Shown piece by piece: positions 233 to 60,117 of a stretch of DNA of 64,000 nt. A program made the translations under genes and the position numbers. The notes beneath the pieces were generated by a model. That model was not told the origin of the DNA, ran no database searches, and saw only the letters and a list, made by a program, of their open reading frames with translations. This DNA comes from a virus, in the IMG/VR virus record IMGVR_UViG_3300045988_113151. One strand, given 5' to 3'. Within the stretch, counting starts at the first letter, position 1. Every line of letters starts with the position of its first letter.

Positions 233-383
233 CGCAGTCAGAACCATATAGGCTATTATGCCTAACGGACCGAGCCTTACTAAACTTTCTGAAATACTGA
301 AAGAAGTAAAAAATCACGTGCGTGCCATCATGCGTTTGGTAGGTTAGTTCTCGAAGAAGGTAGATGGCGAAACTGAAGGAAAT

Positions 384-1431: not shown

Positions 1432-1938
1432 ATGAGAAATTATAGTAATGCAGATATTAAATATATAGAATGTATAAATAACAAATTAAATAAGTGGAGA
1501 ATACGTTGGGATATACAACCAGAATATCAACAAAACGAAGAAGGAAGCCAAGAAGAAAGAGGAGTATCATTTTTAGAATATGAGTTTAAACACAAACCAT
1601 CTTTAGATGAGATAAAAGATGTAGTATTGAAATGGTACAATGATAGAATAGATACTTAGATTTACTCTGGATTTGTATGGAAAAATATGCCAGTGTGGTT
1701 ATCTAAAGAAAATCAATTTAACTATAAAGCAGCATTTGATTTAGCAGTATAGACCAACAGTCAATCATTACCTGTTACATTTAAATTTGGTAGTGAGTAT
1801 CCAATATATTATACATTTGAAACTATTGATGAATTGACTGACTTTTATCAGAAAGCCATGGATCATGTTACTACTACCTTAACAGCTGGATGGGCTTTAA
1901 AAGATTCATTAGATTGGTCAGTATATAATACAGATTGA
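1432..1938 (+). CDS. hypothetical protein (168 aa), possibly a DUF4376-like tail-fibre accessory domain
   Basis: ATG 1432 to TGA 1936-1938 with in-frame TAGs at 1657 and 1750. SGFVWKNMPVWLSKENQFNYKAAFDLA...ELTDFYQKAMDHV resembles DUF4376 from memory only. Confidence 0.45.
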
Positions 1939-2084
1939 GTTAGCAAAAAGAGCTATTACATCTCCTGTATATACTTTTACTTATAGTAACATATACATAC
2001 AGGAGACGTTTCATAAATAAAATGTCAAAGGTATTTTCATATGCTAGCTAATATCATGTTAGCATTAATCTCAGAAAAAAATTA

Positions 2085-2633
2085 ATGATTGTGTTAAGTA
2101 GAAGTGAACAAGTAATGAATCTCGCTAGACGTATATTTGCTAACGGTTACCAATCTATATTAGGTTGGTGTACTGGGATTGCAACTATAATAGCTCCAGC
2201 CGTGCCTTTAATAGGTACTGCTTTTCTGTTCATAATATTAGACTTAATCTATGGGTATAAAGTATATAGAAAATTCACAGGGCGCAAAGATGTTGAATCT
2301 GGTAAATTATGGAATACTTTAGAAAAACTAATGTTTGCATCAGTAATGATTGCTGGGTTTACTTTATTAGATAAGTTTGTATTTATGACATATGCAGATC
2401 TGGTGCTAGCTAAAGTTGCAGCAGGCGCTATATGTTTTGCAGAAATAATATCATTATTAGAATCACGTAAGGCATTAAAGCCTAACTCAATAATAACAAA
2501 ATTACTTTCTAAGATAATAAAATCTAAAGCAGAGAAATACCTAGATGTCGATATTTCAGATATAATAGAAGACTAGAAAAATATTAATACTATTACAAAT
2601 GATACCAGTACTGATAAGCTTAGCAAAAAATAA
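2085..2633 (+). CDS. holin (phage holin family 4-like)
   Basis: Multiple TM segments. FIILDLIYGYKVYRKFTGRKDVESGKLWNTLEKL fits the LD..G...S.K..KK holin signature. In-frame TAG at 2574, true stop TAA 2631-2633. Confidence 0.55.
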
Positions 2634-3255
2634 AATTCTACAAGTTGTCAGTTGGTTTAAAAAGTATTACAAAATAATAGCAGTGATTGTCATTTCGATA
2701 CTCACTGCTATTTTGTTTTATTAGCATGACTAGCTACAAAAGAAGAATTTAGAAATAGATAGAGTAACTAATAACTACGAATTCTACATGAAACAAACCG
2801 CGGAAAGTATTCAATAGAATCAAGTATTGTAGCTTACTTTAAATGAATATAAAGAAACCAAAGATAGCTTAATATAGAAAATAAAAGCTACTTAGAAGAA
2901 ATTAAAAATCAAAGAGAAGGAGCTATCTCAAGTGCAGATATAGGAGCAAGAAATAGTACATGATACTACAGTAGTAGTCAAATCAAATGACTTTGAAGTG
3001 GAAATCAAACCAAATAGTTTAACATCAATTATTATAAGCAGAAAAGATACTCTCCTTAAACATCGTCTAGACATTAGAAATTCTCAAACAGTGTTTGTAG
3101 GTTAGAAAAAAATATACAAAAGATAGTATAAGAATTGGTTCTAGAGACTCCTTCACTTTGATTTTAAAAAGAAAACTATTTATAAGTACCAAATAGATAA
3201 CAGTAATAAATTAATCAAAATAGAAAATACTAGAATAGTTGAATTATCAAAATGA
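2599..3255 (+). CDS. membrane-anchored coiled-coil protein, spanin-like lysis candidate (218 aa)
   Basis: ATG 2599 overlaps the holin 3' end. N-terminal TM (IIAVIVISILTAILFY), then a K/E/Q-rich helical region. 10 in-frame TAGs, TGA 3253-3255. Confidence 0.4.
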
Positions 3256-9865: not shown

Positions 9866-11740
9866 ATGAAGAAGAAAATAAATATACCTAAATATGCATA
9901 TGGAGTAGATTAGATTACCGATGCAATAGGTGCAGGATTAAATATGATAGGTAATGCCACATAGGGAAATTAGGTTACAGCTAGTGGTGTATTAAGTGGA
10001 GTAGCAGGTGGAGCTATGGCAGGTGCTCAATTTGGTGTACCTGGTGCTATTATAGGAGGAGGATTAGGTTTAATAACATCTTCTATGGGAACTGGTGGAG
10101 ATGTAAATGAACAAACAGGTGAAGTTACTAATCCATCTGGTATAGCTGGTTTATTTGGTCATAGTAAGAGATACTTACAGAATAGAGGAGCTAAGATAAG
10201 AAACGGTATACAATCTAGATCCAATGCAGAACAAATAGCTTCTGATTACTATATGAATAATGGTTATAATAACTTATCACTATCTAAAGGTGGTGTTGTT
10301 CCATCTACTATGGCTTACTTAGATGATGGAGAATTAATTAGAACTCCAGATGGTACAATAGGCTCAATACCAGAGGAAGGTAAACCAACTGATTCTAATT
10401 TACTTAATGTACCAGTAGGAACTCAGGTACTAAGTGACAAGTTAAAAGTTCCAGGAACTAAAAAGACATTTGCTGAAATGGGAAAGAAATTAATGAGAAA
10501 AGCAAAAGAAGGTGGTGATATTTATGCTCAGAATAGTAAGAGATTAAATGAGCTTAATAATCAACTGGCTTATCAAGAACTATTAGAATTACAGGAGTCA
10601 GTAAAAAACAAAGCTTCTAATAAAGCTAACAAGTATAGTAAAGGTACAGATAGTAATGGTATTTCTCCTAGAATTAAACCTTACAAATATAATACTAATA
10701 TGAGTAAATTTCCATATTGGGACAGTACTACAAACAATTATAAACCTGAATATCTTAACTGGGTTAATAATATTACAGATCAGGATATAAAGGATATTTA
10801 TAGTGGTAAATACGGTGATATGTCTACTTATTTAGGTAAAAACAAAGGAGTAATACCTACTGCGCAAGAAGCTAAAGCTTTGATGACGGATAAAAAGTAT
10901 GGAGACTGGCATAAAATTGGACAAACATTTGCTACAGCTAAAAGTAGAGAGTCCCAAAGTATTCCTAATAAAACTAGATTTGGTAGAAATACTCAAGACT
11001 TTAGTAGAACACCTATTACAGTGAATGCTCCAATAGGTAATGTAGATTCTTCTAACGAAAGAGGATCTTATTTTAATTACACTGGTAATCCTGGTAAAAT
11101 AAATGTCAATAGAAAATTAACCCCGTCTAGTGCTGGAGTATAGGATTCAATAGATCCTGCTAATTTAGGAGGATTAATGAGTAACTTAGCTGCTTTAGCT
11201 GGTCCTATAGGTAATATATCAGTAGGTAGACCAGAACAAGTAGATACTTATACATATGACCCAGTTTATGGTCCTACCGAATATAACATAGATCCTTTAC
11301 TTAATTAGATTGCTTCTAGTGATGCTATAGCAAGATACAACATGGCTAATGTAAATCCAAATACAGGAGCTAACATGGCGTTTGGTATACAATCAGCAGT
11401 AAATAGAAACAATGCAATAGCTAACGCATACTCTCAAAAGAATAATGCTGAAAATCAAATGGCATTTAATAATGCATAGATAGCAAATCAATGGGGACAA
11501 CAGTATGCTAATGCAAGACATATAGCAGCTAATGAATAGGCTTAGAATGATGCTACAGCTAGAAATATACGTAGACAAGGTTATGGTGATTTATCTACAA
11601 GATTGCAAGCTATCAGTAGAGACAAGCGTTTAATGAACAGAGATTAGGCAATGTTAGAAGCAATGCTACCGTATTTAGAATATGGTATGACATCTAAACA
11701 ATTAAAAGAATTACACAGTAGATTAAGTTATGGCAGTTAA
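9866..11740 (+). CDS. virion protein with Gly-rich hydrophobic N terminus (624 aa), ejection/cargo candidate
   Basis: ATG 9866 to TAA 11738-11740 verified. 9 in-frame TAGs. GAGLNMIGN...GVAGGAMAGAQFGVPGAIIGGGLGLI. Confidence 0.6.
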
Positions 11741-13604
11741 TAGATTTGACAAACCAATAGAAAGTGAGTATATTAGTCAATATACTCCAATTCCTTTTGA
11801 ATAGCTATATGCTATAGGTAAAGCAAATAATGAAAGAGTAGATAAAGCTTACAATGATTTAGCAAACCAATTTAGTAAATGGGGTGAGTTTAGATCCCCA
11901 TCAGCAGTAGATACAAAAAGATTTTATGACTATACTATTGGAGCTGCACAAGATCTAGTAAATCAATTAGCTGCAAATCCAGATCTGATAAAAACAGCTG
12001 AAGGTCGTTCGATGATACAATCTTTTATAAACTCTAGACCATATAATGAGTTAAGCTAGTTGCAGCAAAGTCGTGAAGGACTACTTTAGAGATAGACTGT
12101 TAATTAGAAACTTATGTTAGCTGGTAAATATAATCCGTTGTGGCATGATGTAGATTTTACTAATTATGATACAGTAAATAGTGGCATATATAATGATATT
12201 GCTCCGTTGGCTTATAAATCTGAAAGAGAATTAGTAGAACCTTTTGTCAATAACCTGAAACCTGGATTTATTAAGCAAGAAGGTATGTATGATTGGAGAG
12301 GTGTATCTACTGATAGAACAGATACAGAGTTAGCTAAGAATCTATCTTCTATATATAATACCCCAGAAGCACAAAAACATTTAGAAATTCTTCAAAGACA
12401 AGGATTAAGTAAATAGGAAGCTGAAGAACAGTTTGCTAGATCTTTATTTACAGCTGGTAGAGAGTTTGCTTATCAAGATAGAGAATTAAACCCGTTGGCT
12501 AAATTGGATTACGCCGCTTCTCTTAAAAATAATTATCAGCGACCCACTTTTAGACCTATGAGATTAACGGAATCAATTGCTACTACAGGAAGTTAGACAT
12601 TCAATGTTGGTACTAGAGATTACGTTAGAGAAAAATACTCTGAGCAAGTTAATCAGATATATGATAAATATCAAAAGGCTTTGGAAAGCGGGGATAAACT
12701 AGCAGCTAATACGTATGAAGCTCAATTAACCAAAATTAGAGAAGAAGCTAGAAGTTATACTCCACAAAAACTATTTAAAGATATATTTTCGTAGTATATG
12801 GTTGATAATAAACTTACTAATATATCTTTAGCTAATGCTACTAACGAGATATTGAACAGACTGTCTACTCCATTAAAAAATAGTAAAGTAAATGATTTGT
12901 TACAAGAAACTATACCTGGCGTATCTTCCGATAAAGTAAATACTGATTTTGGTAAGAGAAGAGTAATAACTAACGGCATGGGATTAGACTTAGCTACAGA
13001 TGTTTTCACAGAAATTGCTGGTTTAAAGCACGTTAGCGATAGTAAAGATAAGTTCCGTTAGGCTTTAAAAAGTGGTAGAGTAAACGACATGATAGTATTA
13101 CAAGGCGGTAACTTCATTACTTTACCTAGTAAAAATGGAGATACAGTTTCCCCAAACAGTAGTTAGATAGTTACTGTGGCTATACCTCAAAGTTCATTAG
13201 ATAAATTAGGTATTACGGACAGAGATATGATAATATCTGGAGCTAAAAGAATTTATAATAACAAAGGTAAATCTACATATTCTATAGATGTAAAAAAAGG
13301 AGAAAAGAAAATATAGCTTACAGATAGATATTTTAATGAAGACGATGGATATCATGACGAGTATGAGCATGATGGTAAATATTCTTCTTCGATGAGTAAT
13401 GAAACAATGTACTGGCAAATAGATTTGTTAAACAAAATACCAGACCCTAATGGTCAGTTAAATGCAGAATACTTAGATCAACAAGCTTGGAGTTTATCTA
13501 TGTCAAATGCAGCTAGAGGAGAGCTATTTTCATCTACGCAAAGGGATGCGTATGGTGTAGGTTATTCCGCTGGCGAAGATGATGAAGATGAAGATGATAA
13601 ATAA
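11730..13604 (+). CDS. virion protein (624 aa) with acidic C-terminal tail
   Basis: ATG 11730 to TAA 13602-13604. 11 in-frame TAGs. Ends GEDDEDEDDK. Confidence 0.6.
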
Positions 13605-13615
13605 AAATATAAAGT

Positions 13616-16600
13616 ATGGCTAAGAAAAATAAATTTGATTTGAATTCTCCTTCACTGGGACAAAACCTAGTGAAGGATAATATGTCTCAGTATGCTAGTA
13701 TGATAGATTTAGATAATCTACCAGAAAAATATAATATTAATAAACTAACTACTGAAATTGAAGAGCCTGTAGTAGAATGGTCTCCTGAAAATGCTGTTAA
13801 ACACGACGGAGAAGTAATGTACGAATTAGGTAAGGGTCTAGTTAGTTTTTTAGACAATACTAAAAATTTAGTAAATTATATTGGAAAGGAAAGACTAAGC
13901 GTAGGTTTAAGCAAGTTGCAAGATAATCTAATGGAGACTGAGGCTAGATGGCTTCCAGAAATAGAATAGGCTCAGGCTTATTTGAACGCTAAACAAATAG
14001 TAGATTCTATACCTCAAGCTGCTACGTTGAATGATGAGCAAAGACAAGCCGTTCAAGTTGTTAATGAGTTAGAGCCAAAGATAAAAGAAAGCGCTAAAAC
14101 AAATCCATACATACGTGATATATTCTATGATACTAACAATAGAGGTTTACATGGCAATATGTTGATTAATGTAAAAGCCGCTTTAAATGATTTTACTGAC
14201 AAAAACATATTCAACGTAAACCCTTTTGATAATATAGCTACAGCACTACAGGATAATGCTTTAAATGAAGATGATACTCAGTTCTTATGGGATGCTAAAC
14301 AACAGCAAATAGATGACAAACAGAGGCAAGAATTGTTATCTTAGGCTTTAAATAATGCTAAGAATGAGTATGGAGATAAAACTGATGATATTTTAAAAAG
14401 ACAAAACACCTTAAAAAAAGGTGGATGGTTATATGATCCTGCTTCCTTGTCAAAAGAATTTGAGGATAAAGTAAATACCTCTGAACTATCAATAACAGAC
14501 CCAAAATCTTGGTTTTATAACTTGGGACACATAGGTAGTTCTTTGTCTGAAATTGAGTTAATGTTTTTACAAACTGGAGCATCTGTACTAGCTAATAAAT
14601 CTGCTAGAAGTTTAGCTGTTAAAAGTGCTTTAACTAAAACTCCATATGTTGGTCATATAGCTACAGCTATAGCTCTAGGTGAGCAGGCATTTAACTTATG
14701 GATGGCTAAACATTATAGACAGTCTGAAACTGCTAGCGAAGTTTTTGATAACTATCAGCAACGAATACTAACCAGTGCAATCGAAGGTAAATCAGACTTA
14801 GACCGTGTATATCAACAATGGATTCCACAATTAGAAAAATTAGGATATGAAGTAGATAACATGGATGATTAGGAAATACTACAAGCTGGTTTAGCACAAG
14901 GTTTATCTACAGATCAATAGGATTTTGAAGCGATACGCTCTGACGCATTTAATGGCTTATAGGAAGTAAGAGATGTAAATAATGCTCTAAGTTATGTCGA
15001 TTACTTAGAAACAATGCCTTTCTCTTATGGTGGTAAAATATTGTGGAATAACGCAAGTAAATAGTTAGCTAAACGAAAAGGAATACAGAGACCTCTTGAA
15101 GAAGTACCAGGAGTATTTGAACAACTAGGATTAGATAAAGTGGCATCCAAAACTATTGCTAAAGCTTTAACAAAAACATCTGGAAATATTGGTAAAAATA
15201 TAACTAGAAAACACTTATTGGAAAACATAGGAAGTTTTGCTAAGGCTAATGGTATTACTATGTTATCTGAAAGAACAGAAGAAGGTATACAGAGTGTAGT
15301 TGGTTCTAGATATCAGAGAGGAGAGTATGATAAGCTTGGAGAAAAAGGTATTGGTCCTGTAAGAGCAGCTGCTGAAGCTGGATTATTAGGTTTAGAAGCC
15401 AATTTAGCATACTTTGGATTATCCAATGATAACTACTTAAACACTGACGAAGAACTCAGAAAAGCCATGGATATTGGTGGTTTTATAGGATTTATAATGC
15501 CAATAGCTGGTAACGCTGTGAAAATTAAGGATATAGTTAATCAATATGCTTCTGATAAGAATATGAATATGCTTGTAGCTAAAGGATACGATAATGCAGA
15601 GAAAGATAATAAAATGGATGTATTCTTAGATGCTACAAATTCTGGTAAAGGTTTGAAGTACGTTACTGATTACTTAGAATCAATGAAATCATTTAAACAG
15701 AGCGGAGTAACTGATTAGATGATTGAAGAAGATAAATAGCTAGCTACTAAAATTTGGTCAGAGTATCATAACAAATCGTTGAATGATAATCTGAAAAACT
15801 TAGGCATAGATAGGGGTAGTGATGATCATAAAAGAATAATAAAGAACTATGTACATATTAGTGAAAGATTAAAGGAAGCGGAAAGTGATTTCGATTATAT
15901 ATCCAAGGAACTAGAAAAGTTAGTTGATGCTGGATAGAATAATCTTGATGAAATATTCTTACAAAAGGCTAAGGAATCATATGACGCCACGTTTAAAGAT
16001 CAGCAAGATGATAGTAAAAAACCCACTATAGAAGAATACAGTAAAGTACTATACAATATATCTTTTTTAAAATTGCAAAGACAAGCTTTGTCAGAATTAA
16101 AAGAAGATATTAAAAATAGAAAAAAACAACTGTCTGAAGTAGCTTCAGATACTGGTCTTCGTGTAAATATTTCTGGAGTAAAAGCTATCGACAAAGAGAT
16201 AGATAATTTGTCACAACAAGTAAATGACCGAATAAATTCTTTATCAAAAACTCTTGGAATAAATGACATCAACTTAGTTCAAGATCCTATTAATAGTGAT
16301 GAAATAAAGCAATATTTTACAGCTTACGCTATGAATAAGGCTGTACGTGATAATATTGAAAAACAAGTACTACCATATATAACAGGTAGACTAAGCTATG
16401 AAAATGCAGTTGACATACTTGAAGATACTAAGTTGTTAAAGGAAATGGAAGATTTAGTACAAACAGATAAGCATAAAATAGCTATGGCTAATGCTTTGTT
16501 TGTTCAACATATGAATAGAACTAAATCTCAGGAAAAAATAGCAACTAGAGAAAAAGAAGAAGAAGGTGAAGTATTACCAGAACCAGAGCAATCTGACATT

Positions 16601-19600
16601 TAGACTGAACTAACATAGCAACAAAGCTCTCAACAAGAACAAACCAAAGAACAAGTTTACGAATCTCCTGTATTAGAAGGTGTAAAACCTGAGCCTACAG
16701 TTCAAGAAGGTATTGTGGATTCAGAGCCACAAGTTGGAGCATTATCTACAGCAGATGAAATATTAAAAGCTGAAGAAGAAGCCGAAGCATAGAGAAAAGG
16801 AAAACAATTAATAATCGAACCAGGTTCAGATGATGTAGCAATATTAGAACCTACATTAGAAGAGTAGACTCAATCTGGAATACAAGAAGAAGAGGAAATA
16901 CGTAATATACAAGCTTCTACAGAAACTGTTATAGAATAGCAGTCAGACTTGGGTTCTGTACAGATTGGTACACCTAGTCCAGCTGAATTAGAAGCCGAAG
17001 ATGTTAATAATAGAACAGCACAATCTACTGAAGATGAACCTAAAGTAGAACAACCCACTTAGGACAATACTCCATTGGAGGATAATGTTGTAGAAAAAGC
17101 TACTGAGAAACAAGCGTAGGTAATTAAGGATGAAAGTAACCCTGTTCCCCCTACTTCAGATTAGGTTGAAGAGTCTAAACAAGAACCAGAACAGACTCCT
17201 ATTACTATAGTAGACGGAGGTGTGTACGTAAATGGAACTACCTTTGTGTCAGATGATGTTTTATAGACTGAATACTTATTGTCCAGTGAGGATATAGAAA
17301 TAGAGACTTATGGAGAAACAGCTTTTGCTAATAAGCATCCAGAGAGAGTAGTAAACGATACTGATGCTTTAACTAACAGAAAGACATAGAAAGTAAAACA
17401 TGTATCTAATACTTTCTTTTTCCAACCTAATGCTACAGAACCTATGAATGTTACAGTAAACGGTAAGCCTGTAGTTTTTACTAATAGTAAAGGAGAGAAA
17501 TTAGATGTATTGTCTGGTTCTGTATTAGCTAGCAGATTAATTAAGAACGGATGGTTAGATACTACTAATCAGTATTTTATTGTTACCAACCATAAATATG
17601 GAGATGGAGATGTTTATAAACAAGCTATTCATTTGGTTATAGAAGATACCGATGGAGTAATGATAGCGTCATTAAGAACTCCTGATTACGTAGATAAAGA
17701 GATTGCTAGTGGAAATTATAATCAGGAACAGATAAAAATGCTTCAATAGCAGAAGGAGCAACTTATTGCATTACGCCAAAAGATAGTAAACTCTTATTTG
17801 GGGTCCAATAAAATTATTCCCACTAACATAATTAAAACAGTTAAGCCTGCTGGTTTAAGAATAAGCAACGGAGAGTTCAATAATCAAAAAACTGCTGATG
17901 AAGCCCCTCTCAGAAGAAAGTTAACCCAAGTTTCTGATTTAAATCTACCTACTGATAATGTTATAGCCTTAGATGAAGCTATTAGTAACGGAGAACTAGA
18001 AATAGGATATGGAACTGGTTCTGTTGAGGAATTTGTATCTGAACCATTTGTTATACGTAAACTGGGTTCAGATACTGAATTAGTAGACAGTAAAGGCAAA
18101 GGTAGATCTGGTGCACTATATCTAATACCTAAGAAAGAACAAACTCCTAATGGTGCAATCGCTCCGATTCAATTATCTATAGCAAAATTAGATACAAATA
18201 TATATGGTGAAGATATTGAATTAGGTTCTGGCAATAAAGTAAATTCAGTGGCTGAGCTTGCATATAAGCTATTAGTTGGTGAAATAAAACTAGCTGGAGC
18301 AGAATAGGATGTATTAGATATAATAGTTAGAAATGGTTCTAAAACTCTTATAAGTAAAGAAGTAGGTGAGAAATATCCGTTCTTACTAGATAAGATGTTA
18401 TATTATAATGAAACAGATCCTAATAGACCTCATTTGCAATATGCAGTTAAAAATTCAAATGGTACATATAGTAGAGTAGAATTCAACCCTAACAGAGTAT
18501 CAGAGCAGATTAAGAAAAATGCTATAAGAAAGATAGCTAAAGACATGCACTGGAATACTGAGAAATACGCATTACTTGAACCAATACCTTCAAGAATTGT
18601 GAATTTGGGTAAATCCTATTTCAAATAGTTTCCCAATGAGAAAGTGTATAAGATAGCTGGATTAAAAGATTTATCCTTTACTAAGGAAGATCTAGGAATC
18701 GGCACTGAACACGGTCCTGTATCATTGTTGGCTTGGATGATTAATACTGGTAAGATTCAAACGGACTTAGGGGATACTATATTTAAAGCTCCTTTTATAT
18801 ATGCTGATGGTGTTGCTGTGCCTTAGATAACAGAAAGTGTCTCACAACAACCAAAGGGAGTAAGTCAAGCAAGAGCGTTAGTAGATATACGGAATAATGA
18901 TTAGAAACACAATATTGAAACAAAAGAAGATAAAGAATTACAATAGAAAGAAGTAATAGGTAAGCCTACTATACAGTATGTTTCTACTGAGGAAAACTGG
19001 TCAGAAGAACAAATTAGAGATTGGATGAAAGCCAACTCTCCCCAATACAAGTATAAAGTAGGTAAATGGTAGATAATTAGAAAAGACGGACAGCTTAAAG
19101 CTGCTATGAAAGTAGCTAAAAGAGGTCTTGCTTCGCAATTTAAAGGTGAAGGTAAGTTCAATGAAACCTAGGCAAGAAAATGGTTACATGATACACTAGG
19201 ATTAGATAAATCTGATGTGATAGTTTCTGAAGCGGTATTCAGAATGGCTGGAGCTCCTGAAGTGTATGGCGCTGTCAAGACATGCATGGATAGATTAAGT
19301 GGAGATTATATAGCTAGAATATTCTTATCAGAACAAGCTGGTTAGGGAATAGAGTATCATGAAGCATTCCACTATGTTAGTAACTTGTTATTGAGTAATA
19401 AAGTAAGAGAAAACGTTTATAGCGATTATATAAGCCTTCACCCAGAATTTGAAAATGCAACTAAGAGAGAAATAGAAGAAGCTCTTGCTGAGGAATTTAA
19501 AGAGTACATGCTCAATGAAAATAGACCATTCCTCAAGTCTTTAAAATATAGAATCAAAAAAGCATTTAGTGCTATTAAATACGCATTTAGAATAACTAGA

Positions 19601-22600
19601 AATGGTAATTTAGTAAGAACATTGTTTAAACAAATACGAAAAGGGGAATTTAAACAATATAAGCCATCTGAATCTTTAATGAAAGAATTCAATGATAAAT
19701 TTGGGGGATTCTTAAATTATTATGTTCCTGGAGTATCAGAAGATCAGTTAAAAAAAATAGCTTCTATAGGCGATGCTTCTACTTTCTACGCTGTAGTAGA
19801 TTCTCTTAATGCTACAGTTATGGATACATTTAACATCAGTAAAATAGAAGATTTACAAGACTTGCCTCAAAAGATTGATGATATATTTGAGGATATTCTT
19901 GCTACTAATCTAGAAATGGGTATGTATCCAGAAGAAACTGAACAATTAATAAGGGACGTAATCAGTAATAAGGAAGTATTTAAAAAGCAGATTGACGATT
20001 ATTTAAGAAACTTCAGTATTATAAAAAAGAATAATCCAGAAGCTTAGCAAGATGAGCAAAACGATATAGATACAGGTAAACCAGATAACACTTGGGATAA
20101 GGAAAGTTACACAATAAGTAAGAAAGCTAATGTAGCATTTAAAGCTAAATTACTATTGTACTCCATACCGAAAACAAGATACGAATTTGATCCAGAAACT
20201 GGAGAAAAGGTATTAGTAGAGGTAGAAGATGACTTACTTATGACTACAAGATCTGAAGATTTTAATGTGGTATGGAATAAGGTACTTGAAAATCTTTGGA
20301 ATGTAGAAAGTTACTTAGATATAGTAGATGAATGCTACAATCTTGGTAAGACTGACCCATTCTTTATGACTTTATATAATAAGTTAACATCCAAAGATGA
20401 CCCAATAGATGAGGTTACTAAAACATAGTTACTTAATACAGTTAAAAGTGCTAAAAATAGTTTAGTAGCTATTGTAGTAGAAAAAAGAGTGTTGAGTAAG
20501 ACAGAAACTATGGGTTCTGATGAGCAAATTCAATATGTTACTGAGCAAATAGCTAAAGAACTTAATTGGAGAATATAGGATTCAGATGTATATCGAAAGA
20601 CTAGTCGTTTACCAAAACAATGGTCTAACGCATTCTTTATGTCCGATTTGATAGACGTTAACTCAGATGGTACTAGAACTATTAACAGTGGTAAATTTTT
20701 AAGTGCTATATGGAGTAAAAAAACCAAGTTGGATTCCCTATTAAATAAGGCTGAATTGTCTAAAGAACAGTATACACAAGCTAGAGAACTGTTTATAGAT
20801 ATATGTAACAATTTATCTATAAATATGGACGACCTATCATTAGATTATTTGTTGAGCAATAATGGTAAAGAACCTGATTATAAGTCATTAAAACAATTCT
20901 GGCATGGTACTACTCCTAGTACATCTTTTGTTAAGAGTATACTTAATAATATTAATACAGCATCACAAAATGGAAGTAGTTCTATAGCTACTCGTGGTGG
21001 TAGTACTGCTAGATCATTTGACCGTATATTTACTACTAGAAACCCTAAAGCTCAAATAAATCAAATGGCTATAGCTTGGGGTAGAACTCACCCATCACCA
21101 GAAGAATTTAGTGTTACTGGAGCAGGTGGTAACTTAGTCTATCCTATTACAGAGAATAACTACATGTCTGATCAAATAAGATGGCTAAAGAAAGATATTA
21201 ATGGTAAAAGAGACCTTCTTAGTAAGAACCCATATTCTGCTAACTCTTTATTACTAGCTACTTTAAATAGCAAACCTAGCACTATAAAACTTAGTACTTA
21301 TCTGAACTTAGAAGAAAATCTATAGAATACTAATAGAGATTACTTTGGTATATCTCCTATAGAAGATTATATATCAAAACTTACATTTGGTTTCAACAAT
21401 CATCTGTTTTGTCCCACGATGTCAGATAAAAAGACTTGGCACACTATTAGTGGAATATAGATGGTTAAGGACTTCTTACCTTCTACAGTATTTTCAGAGT
21501 ATGAATATGACAAAGATACTTAGGAACTTATCGGAGCTAAATACACCAGAACAGAAAGAAGATTTTCCGATAGAACTATTGGTATTTTCAAAGGATATCT
21601 TAGAGATGAATATAATGCAATATAGAAATATTTTGCTACCAAAAAACAGGTAATAGACAATCCTAATTTACAAGTAGGTAATTACTACGGAACTAAAAAA
21701 GGTAACTATGCTGACGGAAATGGAGGTAGATTTAGATATTTCAATGTATTAACTATAGATGGAGTTAAATATAATCTAAATGAGCAACTAGCTAAAGCTG
21801 AGTATGCTAATGATGAAGTAGCTATTAAAAATTTATTAGATGTTATTAAGCAAGCGTTAGATAAAGATACTAGTATAAATGATGCCATTAATACTATGCT
21901 TGTAGAATATGCTAATGATGAAGTATAGAAAGCTATAGAGTTAGGAGTAATATCTAAGAAATTAGAAAATAAGTATATTCCAGATAATATACTTCATACT
22001 CCACAATCTGTAAAAGATAGTAAATCTAAGAAAAATAAAAAAGCTAAGGAAGAGGATGAGTTTATTGTAGATGAAAGTTTTGAAACTAAGTTCTCTGATA
22101 TAGATAGCCAAGATAAAGAAAGCGATTTAGTATATTCAGTAATAGCTTCACATGCTATAAATAGTGCTATATCAACTATCGAGATAGAGAAATGTTTTAC
22201 TGGAGACCCAGCTTTATATAAATGGCAAAAAGAACTGGTAATATATAAACCAAATGATGCATCATTTGAGCCTGTAATATCTAATGAAAGATCTCTTAAA
22301 GAATGGGTATCTAAGCGTTAGGATAATAACGAATTGGACGGAAATCCCTCTGAATACTCTGCTTACTATATGATTACAGGTAGAGATGTTGATAAAATCA
22401 AGCGTCTATCTTCAGTATTATCTACTGGTACTAATCTTAGAACGAAGTTCGGTAATACTAAAGATGAAGAAAATAGAACTAACTCAAAATTTCAAGTATT
22501 ACAATTAAAAGATAATGAAATAGGTTCTACTGTATATGATACTTTGTATTAGATGTTTAGAACATCTCTTATAAAAGATATGTATCAAAAAGAGTTTAAT

Positions 22601-25600
22601 CTTACAGATTAGCAAGCATTGAACGGAGTTAAACCAGAATCTATTAATGCTACTTTGGGTAGACTTAAAAAGAAAAATCCCAAAGCAATAGAATTTATCG
22701 AAAAACAAGCTAAAGCTAGTGCAAAACCATATTCAGATGGAGAGATAAACCAAGCGGATGCTGCTGTATATATTAGACCAGAGTTCTATAAGAAAATGAT
22801 GATTGCTCTTGGTGAGTGGAGTGATGAAATAGCTGAAGCATATAGGATTATGGAAGAGTCTGATGATTGGTTATCAGATGTAGATTTATACAACAAAGCT
22901 GTAAAAGCAATTACCCAACCTCTTAAGATGGTATACTTTGGTGATCATTTTGATGAAACGTTAGGTATGAACGTTAATACATTTGATAAAATGGCTCTTT
23001 TCCCATTGTTTAAGTCGTTTGCTAAAGCCGATAACAAGTATCTATATGACCGTATGAATGATGAAAGCAAGGGAGTAATAGATATGGTAGCTTTCGAATC
23101 AGCTATTAAAGTAGGTGGTAGACAGAAACTGTCATACTATAAAGATGGTAAAGTTAATTTAAGTGAACTTGATAAACCCAGTGATATAGATGGTAGAAAC
23201 GGAAATGGTTTGGCTACTTATACTCAAGATCTTAATCAAATCAGATTGCAGTTAAATACTGACCCTCATGAACATTTAGAAAGAGCTTTTGGTACTCAAG
23301 CTATTAAGATTGGTTTTGCAAACGTTGTAGATACACGTGATTATGGAGCAAATAAAGGGTTGGCAGTAAAAGGGGCAGATATTAAGCGTAATATTATGGA
23401 CGCTATTAATTCTCTATCAAAGATAGGATAGGATGAAATAAGAAGAGAGTTCTTTACTAAAGGTCACGTCGATAATAGAAAAATAGTCAATTATTTATAG
23501 AGGCAAGCTACTAATTCTGGTATGTCTGCTGAAATAGTTGCTAACTTAACTGTAGATGATAATGGAGATATCTTAATTCCAATTGAGGCTCAAAGTATTA
23601 GAGACTGGATTCAAACTAAGATAACATCCTTTGTAAACAAAGCAGTAGTAGATGTTAATACTCCTGGTGGTTCTGCTATTCAGATGTCTTCTTTCGCATA
23701 TGAAGCAGTTGGTAGAAATGTGAAAACAGATGAAGGTTTGGCTACAGCTTTTAATGAAGGCAAGAAACTTAAATTCTTAGCTAAAGAAGGTCATATGTAG
23801 GTAATACTTAGTGAAAACTTCTTTAGAGATATATTGCCCAAAGAGCTCAAAGATGCTAGTTATAGTACTAAACGAAAATGGTTAATTGATAATAACATTA
23901 TAGGGGACTCTTCTAAACCGTATGGTATAGGTTATCGTATTCCTACCCAAGGTCTATCCTCAATGTTTGCATTCTAGGTAGCAGATATTATGCCATAGAC
24001 TATTGGAGATACTATAATTGTACCAGAAGAGTTTACAGCAATGACTGGTTCTGATTTTGACGTAGACAAGTTATATTTAGCCACATATGCTTATAAAGAT
24101 GGAGTTAGAGTAGATTCAGAAGAAGATAGTAAAGAAGGAAATATAAATAAACTATTGGATAATTATTCACTAGTGTTAACTGACTTTACTAATATTGCTG
24201 AGACTCGTGCTTCTATTGACACACTTACTAAAATTCTACAAAAGGAAGTATTACCTATTGTTAAGCCTAGCAATAAAACAGAAGTAAAACCAATGTATGA
24301 ACTTGCTCCTTCATTCCAATTATCAAGAAAGACTGAATATACTGGAGGTAAAGCTGGTATTGCTCCATTTGCTTTGAATTCAACTAATCACGCTCTTACA
24401 CAATTTACCCATTTGTGCATTAATTATTCTAATTCAAATAGATATAATTTAGGAGCTTTAGATGAGGTAACAGGGGAAGATAATCAACGCATTATGGACT
24501 GGTTGTCCGCTATGATCAATGCTCATGTAGACGTTGCCAAAGACCCGTACATTATGACACTTAATGTTAATGCTATTACTTATAATATGACTTCTCTATT
24601 ATTACGAGGAGGTAAAGGTGAGAGCACATTCTACTTCTTAGCGCAGCCTGCTTTACGTAGATTTACTAAAGAGATGTTAGAAAGTAAAGGTATTATTGGT
24701 GCAGAAACAGGAGTAACTGAAAAAGACAAACTTAAGCAGATAGCGAAAGATTGTATGGAATATTTAAGAGACACCCTTATAAATATGCCAAGTAGTAGTG
24801 AGGATAAAGCTACATACACTCAATATTACAATGGATTAGCTGGCGAATACGGGTTATCTCAAATACCTGGATATGATAGTGTAGAAGTTGATTATAGTTA
24901 GGTATTTAACAAAGAAGCTGCTTCTAAGTCATTAAAAGACCCTTATTCTGCGCACGGTTTATACCAACAAGTAATATCAATAAGAGCTTATCAGGATTTA
25001 TCTCAGGATACAGAGGTGCTATCTAACTTAGTTCAATTATCTTAGATTGATACTAAGAAGTTCGGAAATACATTGCCTTTACAATTGAACTTTAAGAGAA
25101 GACTTGATAGATATATTGATAATTATTAGGCTAGATTTTATATTAAAAACAGAGATGATATAGAAAAGCCTATAAATTATTATTTATCTTCTACCTTCTT
25201 AAAAAGAAAATTAGACTCTGCTATTAATACTCCTAGAATATTATTAAGTAATCAAGTAATTGAAGCTACTAAAGGATATAAGAAAATATTTAATGCAGCA
25301 TGTGATTTCTTTATAGGTAATTCTTCAGATGGTCAGTTAGTAACTGATTTGTCTAAAATTATTACTACTATGTTGAGAACTAAAGCTGTAGTTAATAACT
25401 TACCTGATTTCAAAATCAGTGATTCTGAGTTCTTAAGTATGTTAAAAGGTCCTAATAGTATGGCTAAATAGTTAACTAAAATTAAAAATGAGTTGCGAAA
25501 ACGTAATGATTTGCCAGCTATTTCGTTCAATGGAGTCATAAAGAATGAGATACTAAACTACTTACAAGAATATGCTTCAGATGGTTCTTTACAAGAATAT

Positions 25601-26842
25601 GATAGAATAGTAACATCAGACAATGCTCTTACTAATACCTCTACTTATGAAAACAGATTATTATCTTCTTACTAGGATTTGTTAGAATGTGAAGATAGTA
25701 GTATAAGAGAGTTCGCTGATAAATTAGGCTTATATGCTTACCTTACTAGTTTTGATAATAGAGGAGTAGATTCGTTCTTTGATGTTATAACTACAGCTTG
25801 GAAGAAATCAAAAGGATATCCAGATGCTATTAAAGCTGCAATAAATATTATGAATGATGATACCTTACAAGGTATGCACTTCTTTGGATTTGACGCTGAA
25901 AGAATACAAAATGGTAATTATTCTTAGATATTTACAGAGATTGCTAGAAATGCTAGTAGAAATGAGAAGTTAGTACCAACTTATGAACTTAATCAATACG
26001 ATAGAAAATTGAATTTAGTACAGTTTAGAGATGGAAGTAGACCGTTACCTGCTACATTTGTTAGTTCTACTAACAAACCTTTTGTTAAAGTGTTAATTAG
26101 AGTTACTAATCCAAATGACTTTATAATATATCAAAAAGTTGCAAGCACATATCAAGTAGATGCTAATGGAGATGAAATCAAGAATACTAGAAAATCTGTG
26201 TATAAAGCTATACCAGCTTTAGGAGTAAAAGATGATAAAAAAGTATACTATGAGTATAATAAAATAGCAGATGAACAATCAGCATTTCCATAGAATGCAT
26301 TTCCTAAAGAAGCTATTATCAGTAGTGCTAAATTGGAAAGTAAGGTAAGAGAAGCGTTTAAAGCGCAAGTTGATAAAAATAAGAGTATACTCATGTATGA
26401 ATCTACAGATGCCATATATGTAAAAACGGCTGAAAGAGTAGAGCAAGTTAACGGATTTGAAGAACCAGAAAAGAGTACATATGGATCTGATATGGAATCT
26501 GCAAATGAAGTTTATAATACAGATGAGTCTCAATCTACTAACACTACAGTTGGCGAAGAGGAATCAATACCTACAACAATTATAGGAGAGACAGAATCTC
26601 CTACGTTATAGGATATGTATTATGATACACAAGACCCTACTCAAACTATAATTAGTGACGATGTGTTGTAGTTCTCAGATGAGACTTTTGGAGAGAACCC
26701 ATATTTTGATACTATCCTTGAGTCTGGTATTGCAGAGTATGAAAATGTACAGGATGTAATAAATAGCTTTGAGAGTACAGAAAATACTTTAACAGATAGT
26801 AATTTTAGTGACGAAGCGTATAAAACTTGTAAAGGTGAATAA
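13616..26842 (+). CDS. giant virion protein (4408 aa): HExxH metalloprotease-like motif plus crAss-type DxDxD RNA polymerase module
   Basis: ATG 13616 to TAA 26840-26842. Every gap between track ORFs was read codon by codon: 53 in-frame TAGs, no TAA/TGA. HEAFH at 19358-19372. YRIPTQGLSS...TAMTGSDFDVDKLY with DFDVD at 24053-24067. Confidence 0.75.
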
Positions 26843-43746: not shown

Positions 43747-43763
43747 AAAATATAGTTTTATAG

Positions 43764-43837
43764 TGATTCTATTGCGATTCGAACGCAAAACCTACACTTT
43801 AGAAGAGTGTTGCTCTATCCAATTGAGCTATAGAATC
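43764..43837 (-). tRNA. tRNA-Arg(TCT): tRNA-Arg (anticodon TCT)
   Basis: GATTCTA-TA-GCTC-AATTGGATA-GAGC-A-ACACT-CTTCTAA-AGTGT-AGGTT-TTGCG-TTCGAAT-CGCAA-TAGAATC-A. A full cloverleaf folded by hand. Confidence 0.85.
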
Positions 43838-51793: not shown

Positions 51794-52351
51794 TTAGTAA
51801 ATATTTGCTATTTTTTGTTTTAATCGTTGTCTTGCTTTATTTAAATCTGATTTAACTTTAGATTCTGGTAAAGCAAATTTTTCAGATATCTCATTATAAG
51901 ATAGACCTTCTATTCGAGCGTTTATTAAATCTCTATATTTCTTTCTAAGTGTTAGAATAGCTTGTTCAACTATTTTTACTTTTTCTTGTAAAACTAATTG
52001 TTCTTCAGGACTTTTTTCGATATTTTCTAATTGAATAGTATTATCTTCATCGTCCATATAGTTATTTAATTGCTCTTTCTTATTTCTTCTTATATAATCT
52101 ATTGAACTGTTAACTGCAATAGTTTTTAACCACATTTCAAATGAAATATGTTGTACATAAGAATCTAATTTTTGATAAGCTTTAGTAAATACTACAGATG
52201 TTAAATCATCTGCTATATCTGTATTCTTTACTATATTATAAATAGTAAACCAAATATTTGATTTATATAATTTATAAAGCTTAGTAAAGGCACTTTCTGA
52301 ACCTTGTTTAGCCTGTTCTACTAAAGTAATTACTTCTTGTGTCATAGGCAT
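51794..52351 (-). CDS. ECF-type sigma-70 family sigma factor
   Basis: Region 2 (IADDLTSVVFTKAYQKLDSY...FEMWLKTIAVNSSIDYIRR) and region 4 HTH (LSYNEISEKFALPESKVKSDLNKARQRLK). Confidence 0.8.
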   Translation of the reverse strand: MPMTQEVITLVEQAKQGSESAFTKLYKLYKSNIWFTIYNIVKNTDIADDLTSVVFTKAYQKLDSYVQHISFEMWLKTIAVNSSIDYIRRNKKEQLNNYMDDEDNTIQLENIEKSPEEQLVLQEKVKIVEQAILTLRKKYRDLINARIEGLSYNEISEKFALPESKVKSDLNKARQRLKQKIANIY

Positions 52352-54067: not shown

Positions 54068-54141
54068 TTCACGGAGCAGGATTCGAACCTGCACTCATTT
54101 CCCATATCCGTTCTGTGTCTAACCAATTGCACCATCCGTGA
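54068..54141 (-). ncRNA. 74-nt tRNA-like element without an anticodon stem
   Basis: TCACGGA/TCCGTGA acceptor stem, D arm GTG-AATTGGTTAGA-CAC, T arm GCAGG-TTCGAAT-CCTGC. The 22 nt in the anticodon-arm position (AGAACGGATATGGGAAATGAGT) cannot form a stem. Confidence 0.5.
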
Positions 54142-54142
54142 C

Positions 54143-54283
54143 CTGCTTTTTACGACATTAGCTTAGCCGTTGACTTATCGTATTACGCTGCAATACGAGT
54201 ATAGTCTGTTACAAAAGATTTGTCATTTCTGACGTCTATTGACCTATTCATTTTCATCCTCGCTGTCAAATCCATAATACCCC
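54143..54283 (-). ncRNA. ssrA: tmRNA-like gene, coding piece (5' acceptor strand, tag frame); 3' end approximate
   Basis: GGGGTATTATGGATTTGACAGCGAGG (54283-54258) matches the tmRNA 5' consensus. AATAGACGTC is followed by AGA AAT GAC ... ATT GCA GCG TAA (stop 54183-54185) inside the hairpin 54197-54179. Confidence 0.6.
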
Positions 54284-54382
54284 ATTAGTAGGATTTTCAC
54301 CTACTTTGAAGCTTTGCGACATTTAGTCTAGGAGTGGTTTATACCCTTGCCAAGAGGAATCGAACCTCTATGCTTCTGACCG

Positions 54383-54445
54383 TGGAGTATGAGGGAGTCG
54401 AACCCTCGTCCAAACGATTCATCCAATGACCTAACAGTCAATATA
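54383..54445 (-). ncRNA. ssrA: tmRNA-like gene, acceptor piece (T arm and 3' acceptor strand); 5' end approximate
   Basis: GGAC-GAGGG-TTCGACT-CCCTC-ATACTCC-A (54411-54383). ATACTCC pairs with GGGGTAT at 54283-54277, with G3:U70 and A73. Confidence 0.6.
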
Positions 54446-54997
54446 GTAGTATATAGTTAAATCAATAACTATATACTTAAATATGAATAAACTGTAGGTA
54501 AGTATAATAAAAATAATAATCGGAAATATACTTTAAATACAGAGGCAGATAACTTACTATATGTTTAAAGATTTACTTCTATATCTAAGAGTAGCATCAA
54601 CTATTACTTTATTATAGGCTCTAGGCTCGCTTACTCTACAGTTTTAAATAGGCTTTGATTGCATGTATAGTATAGCAAGTGCTCATGTAAAACAGACTCG
54701 ATTGAACTATAGGCATAAAGCTCTCTATACATATACAATTTGATTTTGTGTACTGTTTATCGTCATAAGACTATTCATAGTACAAACTTCGCCAGTTTTA
54801 TACCCTCGTGGCTTATAGCTCTTGAGTTTAGAACGATCTTTAGGCTCATGATCAGTGGCACGTTTTTTACCCAGCAAAATGGGTCAAGCCTCTATTGCTT
54901 GTTGTCAATTCAACTGTGTACAACATCCTGCATCAAAAGACGACTTATCATGTTCTATGTACAGATTTGTCATAAAGACTTCTTCTTGGGTTGTCGA

Positions 54998-55612: not shown

Positions 55613-55876
55613 AGACTTTTAAATTTAAGAGAGTTATCTGTCTATTCGTACGTCTTATTCAACAGAAGCCCTTTTCCTTCTCCTGACCTATTACTAGGTT
55701 GACCGTTGTATAGTCCGTAGTACTCTATCTGTTAAGATTCCTTTAGGGGTTTGGCTTTATAACTCTCTAGGCTTAACTTCACCATAACTTAATAATTAAG
55801 TTAAAAACAAATTATCTGGCATGATAATATTAGTTGTTATAATAAATATTACTTTATTACTACACGCATGGAGATT

Positions 55877-56652: not shown

Positions 56653-57077
56653 TTACATATAAATTAATAGTTTAAAAGTTAATATTAATGATGGCGTCTC
56701 ATAGTTGCAGCTATGAGATTGTAATCAGTTTAATTGAAAAAGATTTAAAGTTGATACAGTATACTGCAATATACTTACCAGTTCTCCAATAGGATAGCTT
56801 TTGTTAATAGAGCGAACTATTTTACATTTTTGACTCTCACATATTTAAACACATGCAGAAAAGCTGTCAAACCAATCTTACTGTGTACATGATTTTAACG
56901 CCCGCACGATCATAAATACATTTAATCAATAGGTTATTTATAATTTGCATACGTATGTCTCACTAATTTTAATCAACTATCATAGTATTTACTTACGCCC
57001 CACATGTTTGTCATCTTCTGAAGGAGCTATATTCCTGTTTCTCAACTGTAATATAGCAAAGACAATTTTAAAATAAA
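56653..57077 (-). other. ORF-free element A, paralogous to 58723-59047
   Basis: Shares gccccacatgtttgtc (56997-57012) and tacatgattttaa (56886-56898) with element B. Hairpin TCTCATAG/CTATGAGA at 56697-56718. Confidence 0.5.
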
Positions 57078-58722: not shown

Positions 58723-59047
58723 TATTGATTATGTTTTAATGGTTAGTAAATTCTAATAAAATGAAGATTGCTACTTTCACAAGCAACAACCTTCTATAAA
58801 CCAAATTTTAATAAAGAGAATGGCAAATGTAACTAACATCTGAGGACTAGGATACGCTAATCCCTATAAATGATGCAATTAAAAATAGCGAAGAGTTACT
58901 AACGTAGTACAATATAGTTTGCATCATACATGATTTTAAAGTCTGCACTAATGCTAGTTCAAGTGAGCTGTATAAATCAATATACATTTCAGACTAGACA
59001 TAAGCCCCACATGTTTGTCAAGGATTCTCACCTTAATAACTTATAGT
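58723..59047 (-). other. ORF-free element B, paralogous to 56653-57077
   Basis: gccccacatgtttgtc at 59004-59019 and tacatgattttaa at 58927-58939. Confidence 0.5.
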
Positions 59048-59170: not shown

Positions 59171-60117
59171 AATTTAATAATTTTATAAATTTGCATTTTA
59201 CACCTAAAACTTATAAGGGTAATAGGACTCGAAATTAATCTATCCTAAAACTTTATTTATTACCTACTAAAAGAAGTAGAACTTATAAGAAACTGGTGTC
59301 CTCAATGTCTTGGAAGGTTATTGAGTTTTTTAAATATCTGTCTTTCCAGATCGCCAATATTAGTTTATACTCCTAATATTAGAGTTTACTATCTTTAATA
59401 CCTAGAATAAGATAGCAGATTGTTTAAAAGAATAGTATAATCTTCCAAAACTATACTATTCTTTTGTATTATCAACACTCACTATTACACACAGTAGCTA
59501 ATTGTGTTTATTTAGTGACTAGATTCATAGTGGAAATGATTCCTTATGAGAATCCTACTTACTAGCTAGACTCTTGCGCTCGATATTGACGTTGTGGCAA
59601 TCAACAACAATATTTTTCACAATCGAGGGTCTTATTTCTCGGCAACTCCTACTTAATTTAAATTTGAATATATTTATATATCCCAAGTAATCAACAGATA
59701 TTTGGAGCACTATTTTACATCATTGTTTTCACGCTGATTGCTCGTTTTTGATCTTTTAATCAATATATACTTGATCAGTATGTATATATCTATGCTTCTT
59801 ACTTTCTGAGCGAGTTTGCGATTCTCAGATTTCATATTTTCTATTACCACGCATTGGCTAATTAGAAGAGCCTTAATTAAATTAAAATAACATAACTTGC
59901 ACAGTTTGTTTAGTTATGACTAACCAGCCTGTGACTAACTTCTGGTTAGTCTTAATTTAATTACTAGTCTTTACAGCGCTAGCTCTCTGTTTAGTTATTA
60001 TAAAGATAATTAAATTAGAAAAAATTGCTATAATGATGACTCAATTGTAGTGATATGCAGAAGCGATGGACACTTTCATGTCCACGCTCTGATTGACGAA
60101 TAAGCTATATATTAGTA
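59171..60117 (-). other. 0.95-kb ORF-free region (element Y), shorter paralogue of element X
   Basis: Three motifs occur colinear with X: agggtcttatttctc 59626-59640, gcgagtttgcga 59810-59821, ccacgctct 60082-60090. 10-bp hairpin at 59431-59462. Confidence 0.5.

Follow-up and report, generated by a model that had tools for sequence, protein, structure and literature searches.

Does a crAss-like phage encode its own transfer-messenger RNA in two pieces, or does the region in question only resemble such a gene? The question was raised by an initial annotation of IMG/VR virus record IMGVR_UViG_3300045988_113151, which read positions 54143–54445 of a 64,000-nt stretch (hereafter the window) as a circularly permuted, two-piece tmRNA gene on the minus strand. 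ARAGORN, the Rfam model RF04321, and covariation in 42 relatives all agree with that reading. We consider it probable, at roughly 80%, that the locus is a genuine two-piece tmRNA gene of a Suoliviridae crAss-like phage and a minimized descendant of the one-piece Bacteroidota ssrA; its function we infer from sequence.

Detection and Organization of the Gene

The presence of a tmRNA was investigated with ARAGORN and with Rfam covariance models, as the initial annotation had suggested. ARAGORN called a permuted tmRNA (tmRNA*) at 54092–54472 (−) with the tag VRNDKSFVTDYTRIAA*, and it missed the six closest relatives of the window. Rfam families for permuted tmRNAs are RF01849–RF01851 and RF04321. 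RF04321 (tmRNA_permuted) matched 54183–54442 (−) at full length (model positions 1–213) with 48.5 bits and E = 1.7e-6 over the whole 64-kb window, a marginal score that lies 1.5 bits above the gathering score of 47. Relatives scored 40–60 bits with the same model, three of them below the gathering score. The Rfam check was positive for RF04321 but not for the alpha-, beta-, and cyanobacterial models (RF01849, RF01850, RF01851), none of which reached its gathering score; no match to them was listed for the window, and beta_tmRNA gave partial matches in relatives (27–30 bits vs. a gathering score of 84). The standard model RF00023 matched only the tRNA-like domain (TLD) of the window gene (20.3 bits).

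The features of the gene and its immediate surroundings, with the evidence used to place them, are as follows:

54448..54477 (−): hairpin AGTATATAGTT / AACTATATACT, ending 5 nt before the acceptor piece (sequence and predicted precursor fold)
54383..54442 (−): acceptor piece, 60 nt (Rfam alignment and covariation)
54442–54437, 54429–54426, and 54417–54411 (−): P2 3′ strands ATTGAC, TCAT, and TCG-T-TTG
54411–54383 (−): stretch with GGAC and then the T arm GAGGG-TTCGACT-CCCTC (54407–54391)
54390–54384 (−): 3′ acceptor strand ATACTCC, followed by discriminator A73 at 54383
54284..54382 (−): intervening segment, 99 nt, presumably excised
54369–54353 (−): T-arm-like hairpin in the intervening segment
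54304–54288 (−): terminal hairpin GTAGG/CCTAC in the intervening segment, 4 nt before GGGG
54142..54283 (−): coding piece, ~142 nt (Rfam alignment and comparative data)
54283–54277 (−): 5′ acceptor strand GGGGTAT
54265–54260, 54251–54248, and 54243–54238 (−): P2 5′ strands CAGCGA, ATGA, and GTCAAT
54183..54233 (−): tag reading frame (ARAGORN and relatives)
54179..54197 (−): stop hairpin CGTATT-GCAGCGT-AATACG, its 3′ arm overlapping TAA at 54185–54183 (sequence and fold)
54144..54170 (−): candidate H-type pseudoknot with stem 1 ACGGC/GTCGT and stem 2 between loop AGCT and downstream AGCA
54068..54141 (−): tRNA-like element directly 3′ of the coding piece (Rfam tRNA, 36 bits vs. a gathering score of 29)

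The order on the minus strand is permuted: 54442–54383, then 99 nt, then 54283 onward. Each motif that the initial annotation had described was found on this strand at its given position, including the second T-arm-like hairpin in the spacer (54353–54369) and the tag-like frame ending ...DYTRIAA with its stop inside the hairpin at 54197–54179. Within the coding piece, the acceptor strand is followed by the P2 strands, a single-stranded linker, the tag frame, the stop hairpin, which corresponds to tmRNA helix 5, and a small pseudoknot. The tRNA-like domain contains GGAC and a T arm with a GGUUCGAnUCC-type loop, and has no anticodon arm. A minimum-energy fold of the two pieces recovered the acceptor stem, T arm, and stop hairpin. 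The P2 of that fold differed from the comparative P2 and was set aside in favor of the covariation model.

Covariation among Relatives

Relatives were collected by pattern scans of IMG/VR. A generic TLD pattern returned unrelated tmRNA and att-site matches and was dropped, and specific patterns were used instead, yielding 44 parsed unique relatives with the window and RefSeq loci included. For the covariation count, the intervening segment was spliced out, 42 unique sequences were aligned, and pairs were counted. Relatives had the same gene order, with intervening segments of 69–214 nt.

The acceptor stem formed between the two pieces was paired in 294/294 cells across the 42 sequences, and compensatory changes were seen at three of its seven pairs (7-66 as A-U, C-G, or U-A; 6-67 as U-A or A-U; 5-68 as G-C or A-U). 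The G3:U70 pair, which is the alanine identity pair of the tRNA-like domain, was present in 42/42 sequences, and A73 was invariant. The proposed 7-bp stem GGGGTAT/ATACTCC with its G:U pair is thus borne out. Members of the window's own tag class carried three different complementary stems: GGGGUAU/AUAC in the window, GGGGCAU/AUGC in five relatives, and GGGGCUA/UAGC in L242. Consequently, the acceptor-stem covariation is not one inherited change.

The remaining helices behaved in the same 42 sequences as follows. The T stem was 100% paired with two covarying pairs, P2b was 100% paired with covariation at 4/4 pairs, P2c was 97% paired with some covariation, and P2a was 93–96% paired with a U-A to A-U change in seven sequences. 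As a control, the 3′ partners were slid by 1–2 columns, which lowered pairing to 6–74% over the helices and to 41–55% for the acceptor stem. One detail of the earlier model was not supported: it had joined TCGTT and AGCGA as a continuous inner P2 register, whereas covariation favors a register with U54414 bulged, in which U54412-A54264 changes from U-A to A-U in the seven sequences. Downstream of the tag, the 3′ block ACGGC-UAAGCUAAU-GUCGU-AAAA-AGCU fits an H-type pseudoknot; its stem 1 is invariant, and in four relatives both bases of a loop-to-tail pair in stem 2 change, from U-A to C-G. Because the pairing covaries in 42 unique relatives, the tmRNA resemblance at the window locus is more than chance. 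The check proposed at the outset, covariation across related crAss-like genomes, therefore came out positive, with the acceptor pairing and the G:U pair conserved.

Separately, we observed that tag classes, TLD variants, and intervening segments were reassorted among contigs; the tag NYSYITDYTRITA, for example, occurred with two acceptor/T stems. This suggests recombination within the tmRNA gene. Despite the reassortment, the two acceptor strands were complementary in every case.

Tag Reading Frame

The ARAGORN version of the tag runs from GTC at 54233 to the TAA and encodes VRNDKSFVTDYTRIAA*; the UAGAC context of this GTC resembles that of E. coli. Resumption at GAC (54224) instead would give DKSFVTDYTRIAA*, and this codon has the same spacing after P2 as the GGC at which relatives resume, 12–13 nt after P2 and directly behind (U/A)AA(C/A)U. 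The resume codon of the window is ambiguous between the two; the spacing in relatives makes GAC appear the likelier. In either case, the resume codon is not the AGA from which the initial annotation had started the frame. The phage-specific tag is 13–16 aa; its frame has no start codon and resumes at a codon beginning with G, and the C-terminus of the tag is hydrophobic and rich in Ala.

The peptide core Y-V-(T/M)-D-Y-T-R-(I/L)-(A/V)-A was kept mostly via synonymous codon changes (GAT/GAC, TAT/TAC, ACT/ACA, CGT/CGC, and TTA/CTG in relatives), and this maintenance argues that the tag frame is translated. Of the 44 parsed relatives, 25 end the tag with TAA and 19 with TGA, and none uses TAG; at least four pairs of near-identical tags differ in their choice between TAA and TGA.

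As the alternative, the initial annotation had named an mRNA encoding just the 30-aa ORF (54183–54275); the tmRNA likeness would then be incidental. The ATG-started frame MKMNRSIDVRNDKSFVTDYTRIAA is indeed open in the window. This ORF occurs only in the window's subgroup, and in most relatives, including the close relatives L154, L172, and L180, the frame is open for only 19–22 codons and has no ATG. Furthermore, its ATGs lie within or adjoin P2 strands (the in-frame ATG at 54250–54248 is part of the P2b ATGA), and the covariation at the RNA level is strong. With the ATG ORF not conserved even among the closest relatives, we give the mRNA alternative next to no weight.

Missing Pseudoknots and CCA

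In the RF04321 alignment, the model hairpin that follows P2, on the PK1 side, was left unaligned in the window, in line with the original remark that no convincing PK1 could be seen. Only 12–13 single-stranded nt separate P2 from the resume codon. PK1–PK3 are absent from the window gene, and the region 3′ of the tag has one small candidate pseudoknot. PK1 is important for tmRNA function in E. coli. Reduced tmRNAs that lack PK1 and PK2–PK4 are known, so this lack is compatible with membership among tmRNAs.

CCA is not encoded after A73 in the acceptor piece, which the initial annotation had listed as a caveat. The observation stands but is no oddity, being normal in the host phylum: only 4 of ~100 host Bacteroidota tmRNA genes have an encoded CCA, and a C follows A73 there as in the phage genes.

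The small size of the RNA and its lack of PK1–PK3 could also be read as the marks of a decoy, whose tRNA-like domain titrates host SmpB or AlaRS and so blocks host trans-translation. Such a role was proposed for mycobacteriophage DS6A, which has a TLD-only gene, and inhibition by a similar molecule has been described (PMC4131195). The failure to find SmpB among the 37 ORFs of the window would fit a decoy as well. However, a decoy has no use for a tag, and here the frame, the resume context, the peptide, and the TAA/TGA stop are all conserved, which makes this explanation improbable. For a working two-piece tmRNA, the result that no SmpB was found among the 37 ORFs means that host SmpB would be needed.

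Locus and Public Annotation

The window genome matches Suoliviridae crAss-like phages only in patches, at ~85–90% identity, and its closest match, cr6_1, shows ~90% identity across ~3% of a 20-kb query. The tmRNA region matches 15 phage records, and in six of these the match lies under a 'transfer-messenger RNA, SsrA' feature: cr114_1 (NC_055897), cr125_1 (NC_055900), cr60_1 (NC_055891), and cr52_1 (NC_055888), together with the primary GenBank records of cr10_1 (MT774382) and cr50_1 (MT774375). The window feature is thus a tmRNA of a kind already in the public record (GenBank/RefSeq) for six related phages. Phage tmRNAs, including two-piece ones of marine phages, have been published (PMC9004378, PMC4131195, PMC11915505); our literature search found no paper discussing a crAss-like phage tmRNA beyond pipeline mentions. 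Compared with the annotated Suoliviridae tmRNAs, the window gene has the same syntenic locus, permuted order, P2 and TLD sequences, and ...TDYT... tag family. It differs in its U5-A68 acceptor pair, its RNDKSF-type tag start, its other intervening segment, and the degenerate tRNA downstream.

The locus shared with relatives belongs to an early region made up of small ORFs and non-coding RNAs, with an ECF-type sigma factor gene a few genes downstream of the tmRNA (51794–52351 in the window). A scan for sigma-70 promoters and intrinsic terminators gave nothing above chance; Bacteroides-type promoters lay outside its scope. Upstream of the tmRNA, four further RNAs scored above their Rfam gathering scores:

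55627–55780 (−): RAGATH-9 RNA
56887–57025 (−): Hatchet self-cleaving ribozyme
58928–59040 (−): Hatchet self-cleaving ribozyme
59414–59650 (−): RAGATH-14 RNA

Relatives additionally carried RAGATH-6, -7, -7-assoc, -20, and -22 RNAs. At the other end of the window, an Rfam RT-3 RNA was detected at 247–368 (+) with 47.7 bits (gathering score 40.5), inside or adjoining the TAG-containing ORF 117–1424, and the late genes of cr10_1 include an annotated retron-type reverse transcriptase.

Processing Context

Every relative has a hairpin of varying, covarying sequence that ends 3–6 nt before GGGG. In the window and in two relatives (L004 and L006) a further hairpin ends 3–5 nt before the acceptor piece; the hairpins of L004 and L006 are analogous to the window's at 54448..54477, where relatives carry different ones. 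The intervening segment varies as a cassette: that of cr114_1 (L001) holds a bona fide tRNA-His (GTG) at 3070–3142 (63 bits), while the window, cr10_1, and cr50_1 share a conserved spacer of ~100 nt that matches no Rfam family. The window's copy (54284–54382) is ~85% identical to that of Boorivirinae phages. In unrelated IMG/VR contigs (L249 and L254), the spacer also lies between two ordinary tRNA genes, beginning 1–2 nt past the discriminator base of the upstream tRNA; the L254 form is shortened to ~36 nt.

On the 3′ side of the coding piece, relatives have a real tRNA (Leu-UAA or Ile-GAU), a tRNA whose anticodon loop is odd, a minihelix limited to acceptor stem plus T arm, or an insert. In the window this position is taken by the tRNA-like element 54068..54141, in which compensatory changes preserve the acceptor, D, and T stems and the anticodon stem is broken; ARAGORN does not call it. 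It probably sets the 3′ end of the coding piece via RNase P cleavage.

L176 contains, between the coding piece and the next tRNA-like element, a conserved insert of ~115 nt (CCACATCGT..CCCCGTGTGTAATAAATAGGTT..., minus strand, ~1782–1897), with similar ones in L136, L150, L175, and L217. A pistol-type self-cleaving ribozyme was considered for this insert and rejected, as no Rfam match was obtained even at E ≤ 1. The tRNAs right after the tmRNA in L008/L253 (1732–1803), L167 (6337–6408), and L202 (868–942) have 6-nt anticodon loops and are reported by ARAGORN as 'tRNA-???' with 2-nt anticodons. Long inserts were observed in the anticodon region of such tRNAs in L185, L193, and L212.

The layout fits a pathway in which RNase P and the 3′ processing of tRNAs free both pieces and CCA is added afterwards. 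Host tRNA-processing enzymes would cut one early transcript at its tRNA-like junctions, RNase P acting on the 5′ side of GGGG and of the tRNA-like element downstream. Trimming of the 3′ end and CCA addition after A73 would then give an acceptor RNA expected to end in ...CUCCACCA. The cut pieces would remain base-paired through the acceptor stem and the three-segment P2, host AlaRS would charge the two-piece RNA, and host SmpB with EF-Tu would bring it to stalled ribosomes, where the phage-specific tag of 13–16 aa would be added. The phage would probably benefit in that ribosomes which stall during infection on truncated or stop-less mRNAs are recycled.

The same surroundings invite a reading in which the tRNA-like domain serves mainly as RNA punctuation, that is, as an RNase P/Z signal in a long early transcript, with tagging vestigial. 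Hatchet ribozymes and RAGATH RNAs crowd the early region, the gene is flanked and interrupted by tRNAs, pseudo-tRNAs, and minihelices, and the spacer module recurs between tRNAs in other contigs. A pure processing signal nevertheless does not account for why G3:U70 and A73 are invariant, why P2 is long and covaries, or why the tag peptide is conserved, and we regard this reading as quite unlikely.

Origin and Relation to Known Systems

The 5′ motif GGGG-N5-TGGTTTTGACAGCG was found almost only in Bacteroidota genomes, in which ARAGORN identified standard one-piece tmRNAs of ~390–400 nt with 9-aa tags such as GENNYALAA, GNNNFALAA, and GETSYAFAA. The 3′ half of the window TLD is identical over 26/26 nt to a Bacteroidaceae gene. 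Phage and host tmRNAs also have in common the resume context AUAACU-GGC (in the phage relatives) and the GUAGAAAGC block, through which the pseudoknot block at 54144..54170 resembles the last pseudoknot region of host tmRNAs. The simplest reading would be that a host-derived ssrA was permuted and minimized within this phage lineage.

Set against the one-piece Bacteroidota tmRNA, the phage RNA has the common 5′ motif GGGG-N5-UGG(U/A)UUUGACAGCG, the TLD 3′ half identical over 26 nt, the Gly (GGC) resume codon after AUAACU, and the GN... tag start; both have C after A73 and neither has an encoded CCA. The host genes are, in contrast, ~390–400 nt long and unpermuted, with four pseudoknots and 9-aa tags ending in ALAA or AFAA, whereas the phage RNA totals ~200 nt in two pieces and has a tag of 13–16 aa.

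Two-piece tmRNAs, described also in the marine phage Melnitz (PMC9004378), have the acceptor piece upstream and pieces held together by the acceptor stem and P2 (PMC11915505). The window gene resembles those of Alphaproteobacteria, some Betaproteobacteria, Cyanobacteria, and marine phages (Melnitz) in having its acceptor piece upstream and its pieces joined by the acceptor stem and P2, presumably freed by tRNA-processing enzymes. It differs from the bacterial two-piece tmRNAs in that the lineage models do not fit, its sequence is Bacteroidota-like, and PK1 is absent; moreover, its host phylum, unlike those bacterial lineages, has a one-piece tmRNA.

A more detailed history is tentative, at somewhat less than even odds. 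The Suoliviridae two-piece form may have arisen separately from the alpha-, beta-, and cyanobacterial lineages, from a one-piece Bacteroidota ssrA within a phage, and been minimized to ~200 nt without PK1–PK3, with tRNA-like punctuation, a later T-loop intron in some members, and a tag giving proteins a different fate. If this is true, the extended phage tag would give rescued proteins a fate other than that of the host ...ALAA tag.

Intron-Split Relatives

In three relatives (cr6_1, cr4_1, and L256), a group I intron in the T loop additionally interrupts the acceptor piece of the permuted tmRNA gene:

L002 (cr6_1, NC_055894), 1881–3140: intron-split tmRNA
L377 (cr4_1), 1–1100: intron-split tmRNA, only the 5′ exon junction located
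L256 (IMGVR_UViG_3300045988_067577), minus strand, reverse-complement ~11520–12470 (+ strand ~1313–2263): intron-split tmRNA

Rfam Intron_gpI matched the intron-split loci with 96.7, 74.9, and 61.8 bits. The intron loci hold a CDS on the opposite strand, annotated as an endonuclease in cr6_1 and cr113_1. Both tmRNA exons were seen, intact, in cr6_1 and L256. ARAGORN, RF04321, and the RefSeq annotation missed all the intron-split copies. As a side observation, cr113_1 (L378) possibly holds another intron-split permuted tmRNA. Intron-containing tmRNA genes with a group I intron in the T loop are known as the 'intron' form (PMC11915505); cr6_1, cr4_1, and L256 likewise have a T-loop group I intron, but in a permuted gene, and the window's gene differs from this form in having no intron. 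We found no description of the permuted-plus-intron combination in the literature.

These copies also bear on the idea that the locus is a relic undergoing decay, or that the phage acquired part of a host tmRNA gene as an attachment-site fragment. Fragments of tmRNA genes are frequent in temperate phages (PMC9004378), and the adjacent tRNA-like element is degenerate. Yet both halves of the gene are complete and covary over four Suoliviridae subfamilies despite spacers of 69–214 nt and apparent recombination, and the exons are intact even where an intron splits them. A relic is accordingly a very unlikely explanation.

Stop-Codon Recoding

The combination of a recoded stop codon with a phage tmRNA had been singled out in the initial annotation. 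Reading TAG as sense fuses the plus-strand late genes of the window (117–31251) into ORFs of up to 4409 codons, the largest of which (13613–26842) contains 53 in-frame TAG and has neither TGA nor TAA in frame. Early and middle genes on the minus strand (31700–64000) are unaffected, with 6/29 ORFs ending in TAG. ARAGORN found no suppressor tRNA in the 64-kb window, only a tRNA-Arg(TCT) at 43763–43837. The related cr114_1 is likewise recoded, with 69 in-frame TAGs in a 4272-codon gene. However, this same tmRNA is also present in cr10_1, where five large late genes are free of in-frame TAG and one of them ends in TAG. A functional tie of the tmRNA to TAG recoding was therefore rejected, because cr10_1 has the tmRNA with the standard code, and the tmRNA is not a corollary of recoding. 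The combination does occur in the window but follows no rule, and the link that made the finding striking is not general. That TAG never serves as a tag stop is the sole remaining hint of an interplay.

Implications for crAss-like Phages

Because ARAGORN misses close relatives and all tools used miss the intron-split copies, standard detectors overlook several such genes and counts of phage tmRNAs are underestimates. Genes of the window type are compact natural two-piece tmRNAs of ~200 nt for structural and mechanistic work. The crAss-like phages are among the most abundant human gut viruses, and their takeover of host translation is little understood; a conserved phage tmRNA implies that ribosome rescue is limiting for infection in Bacteroidales.
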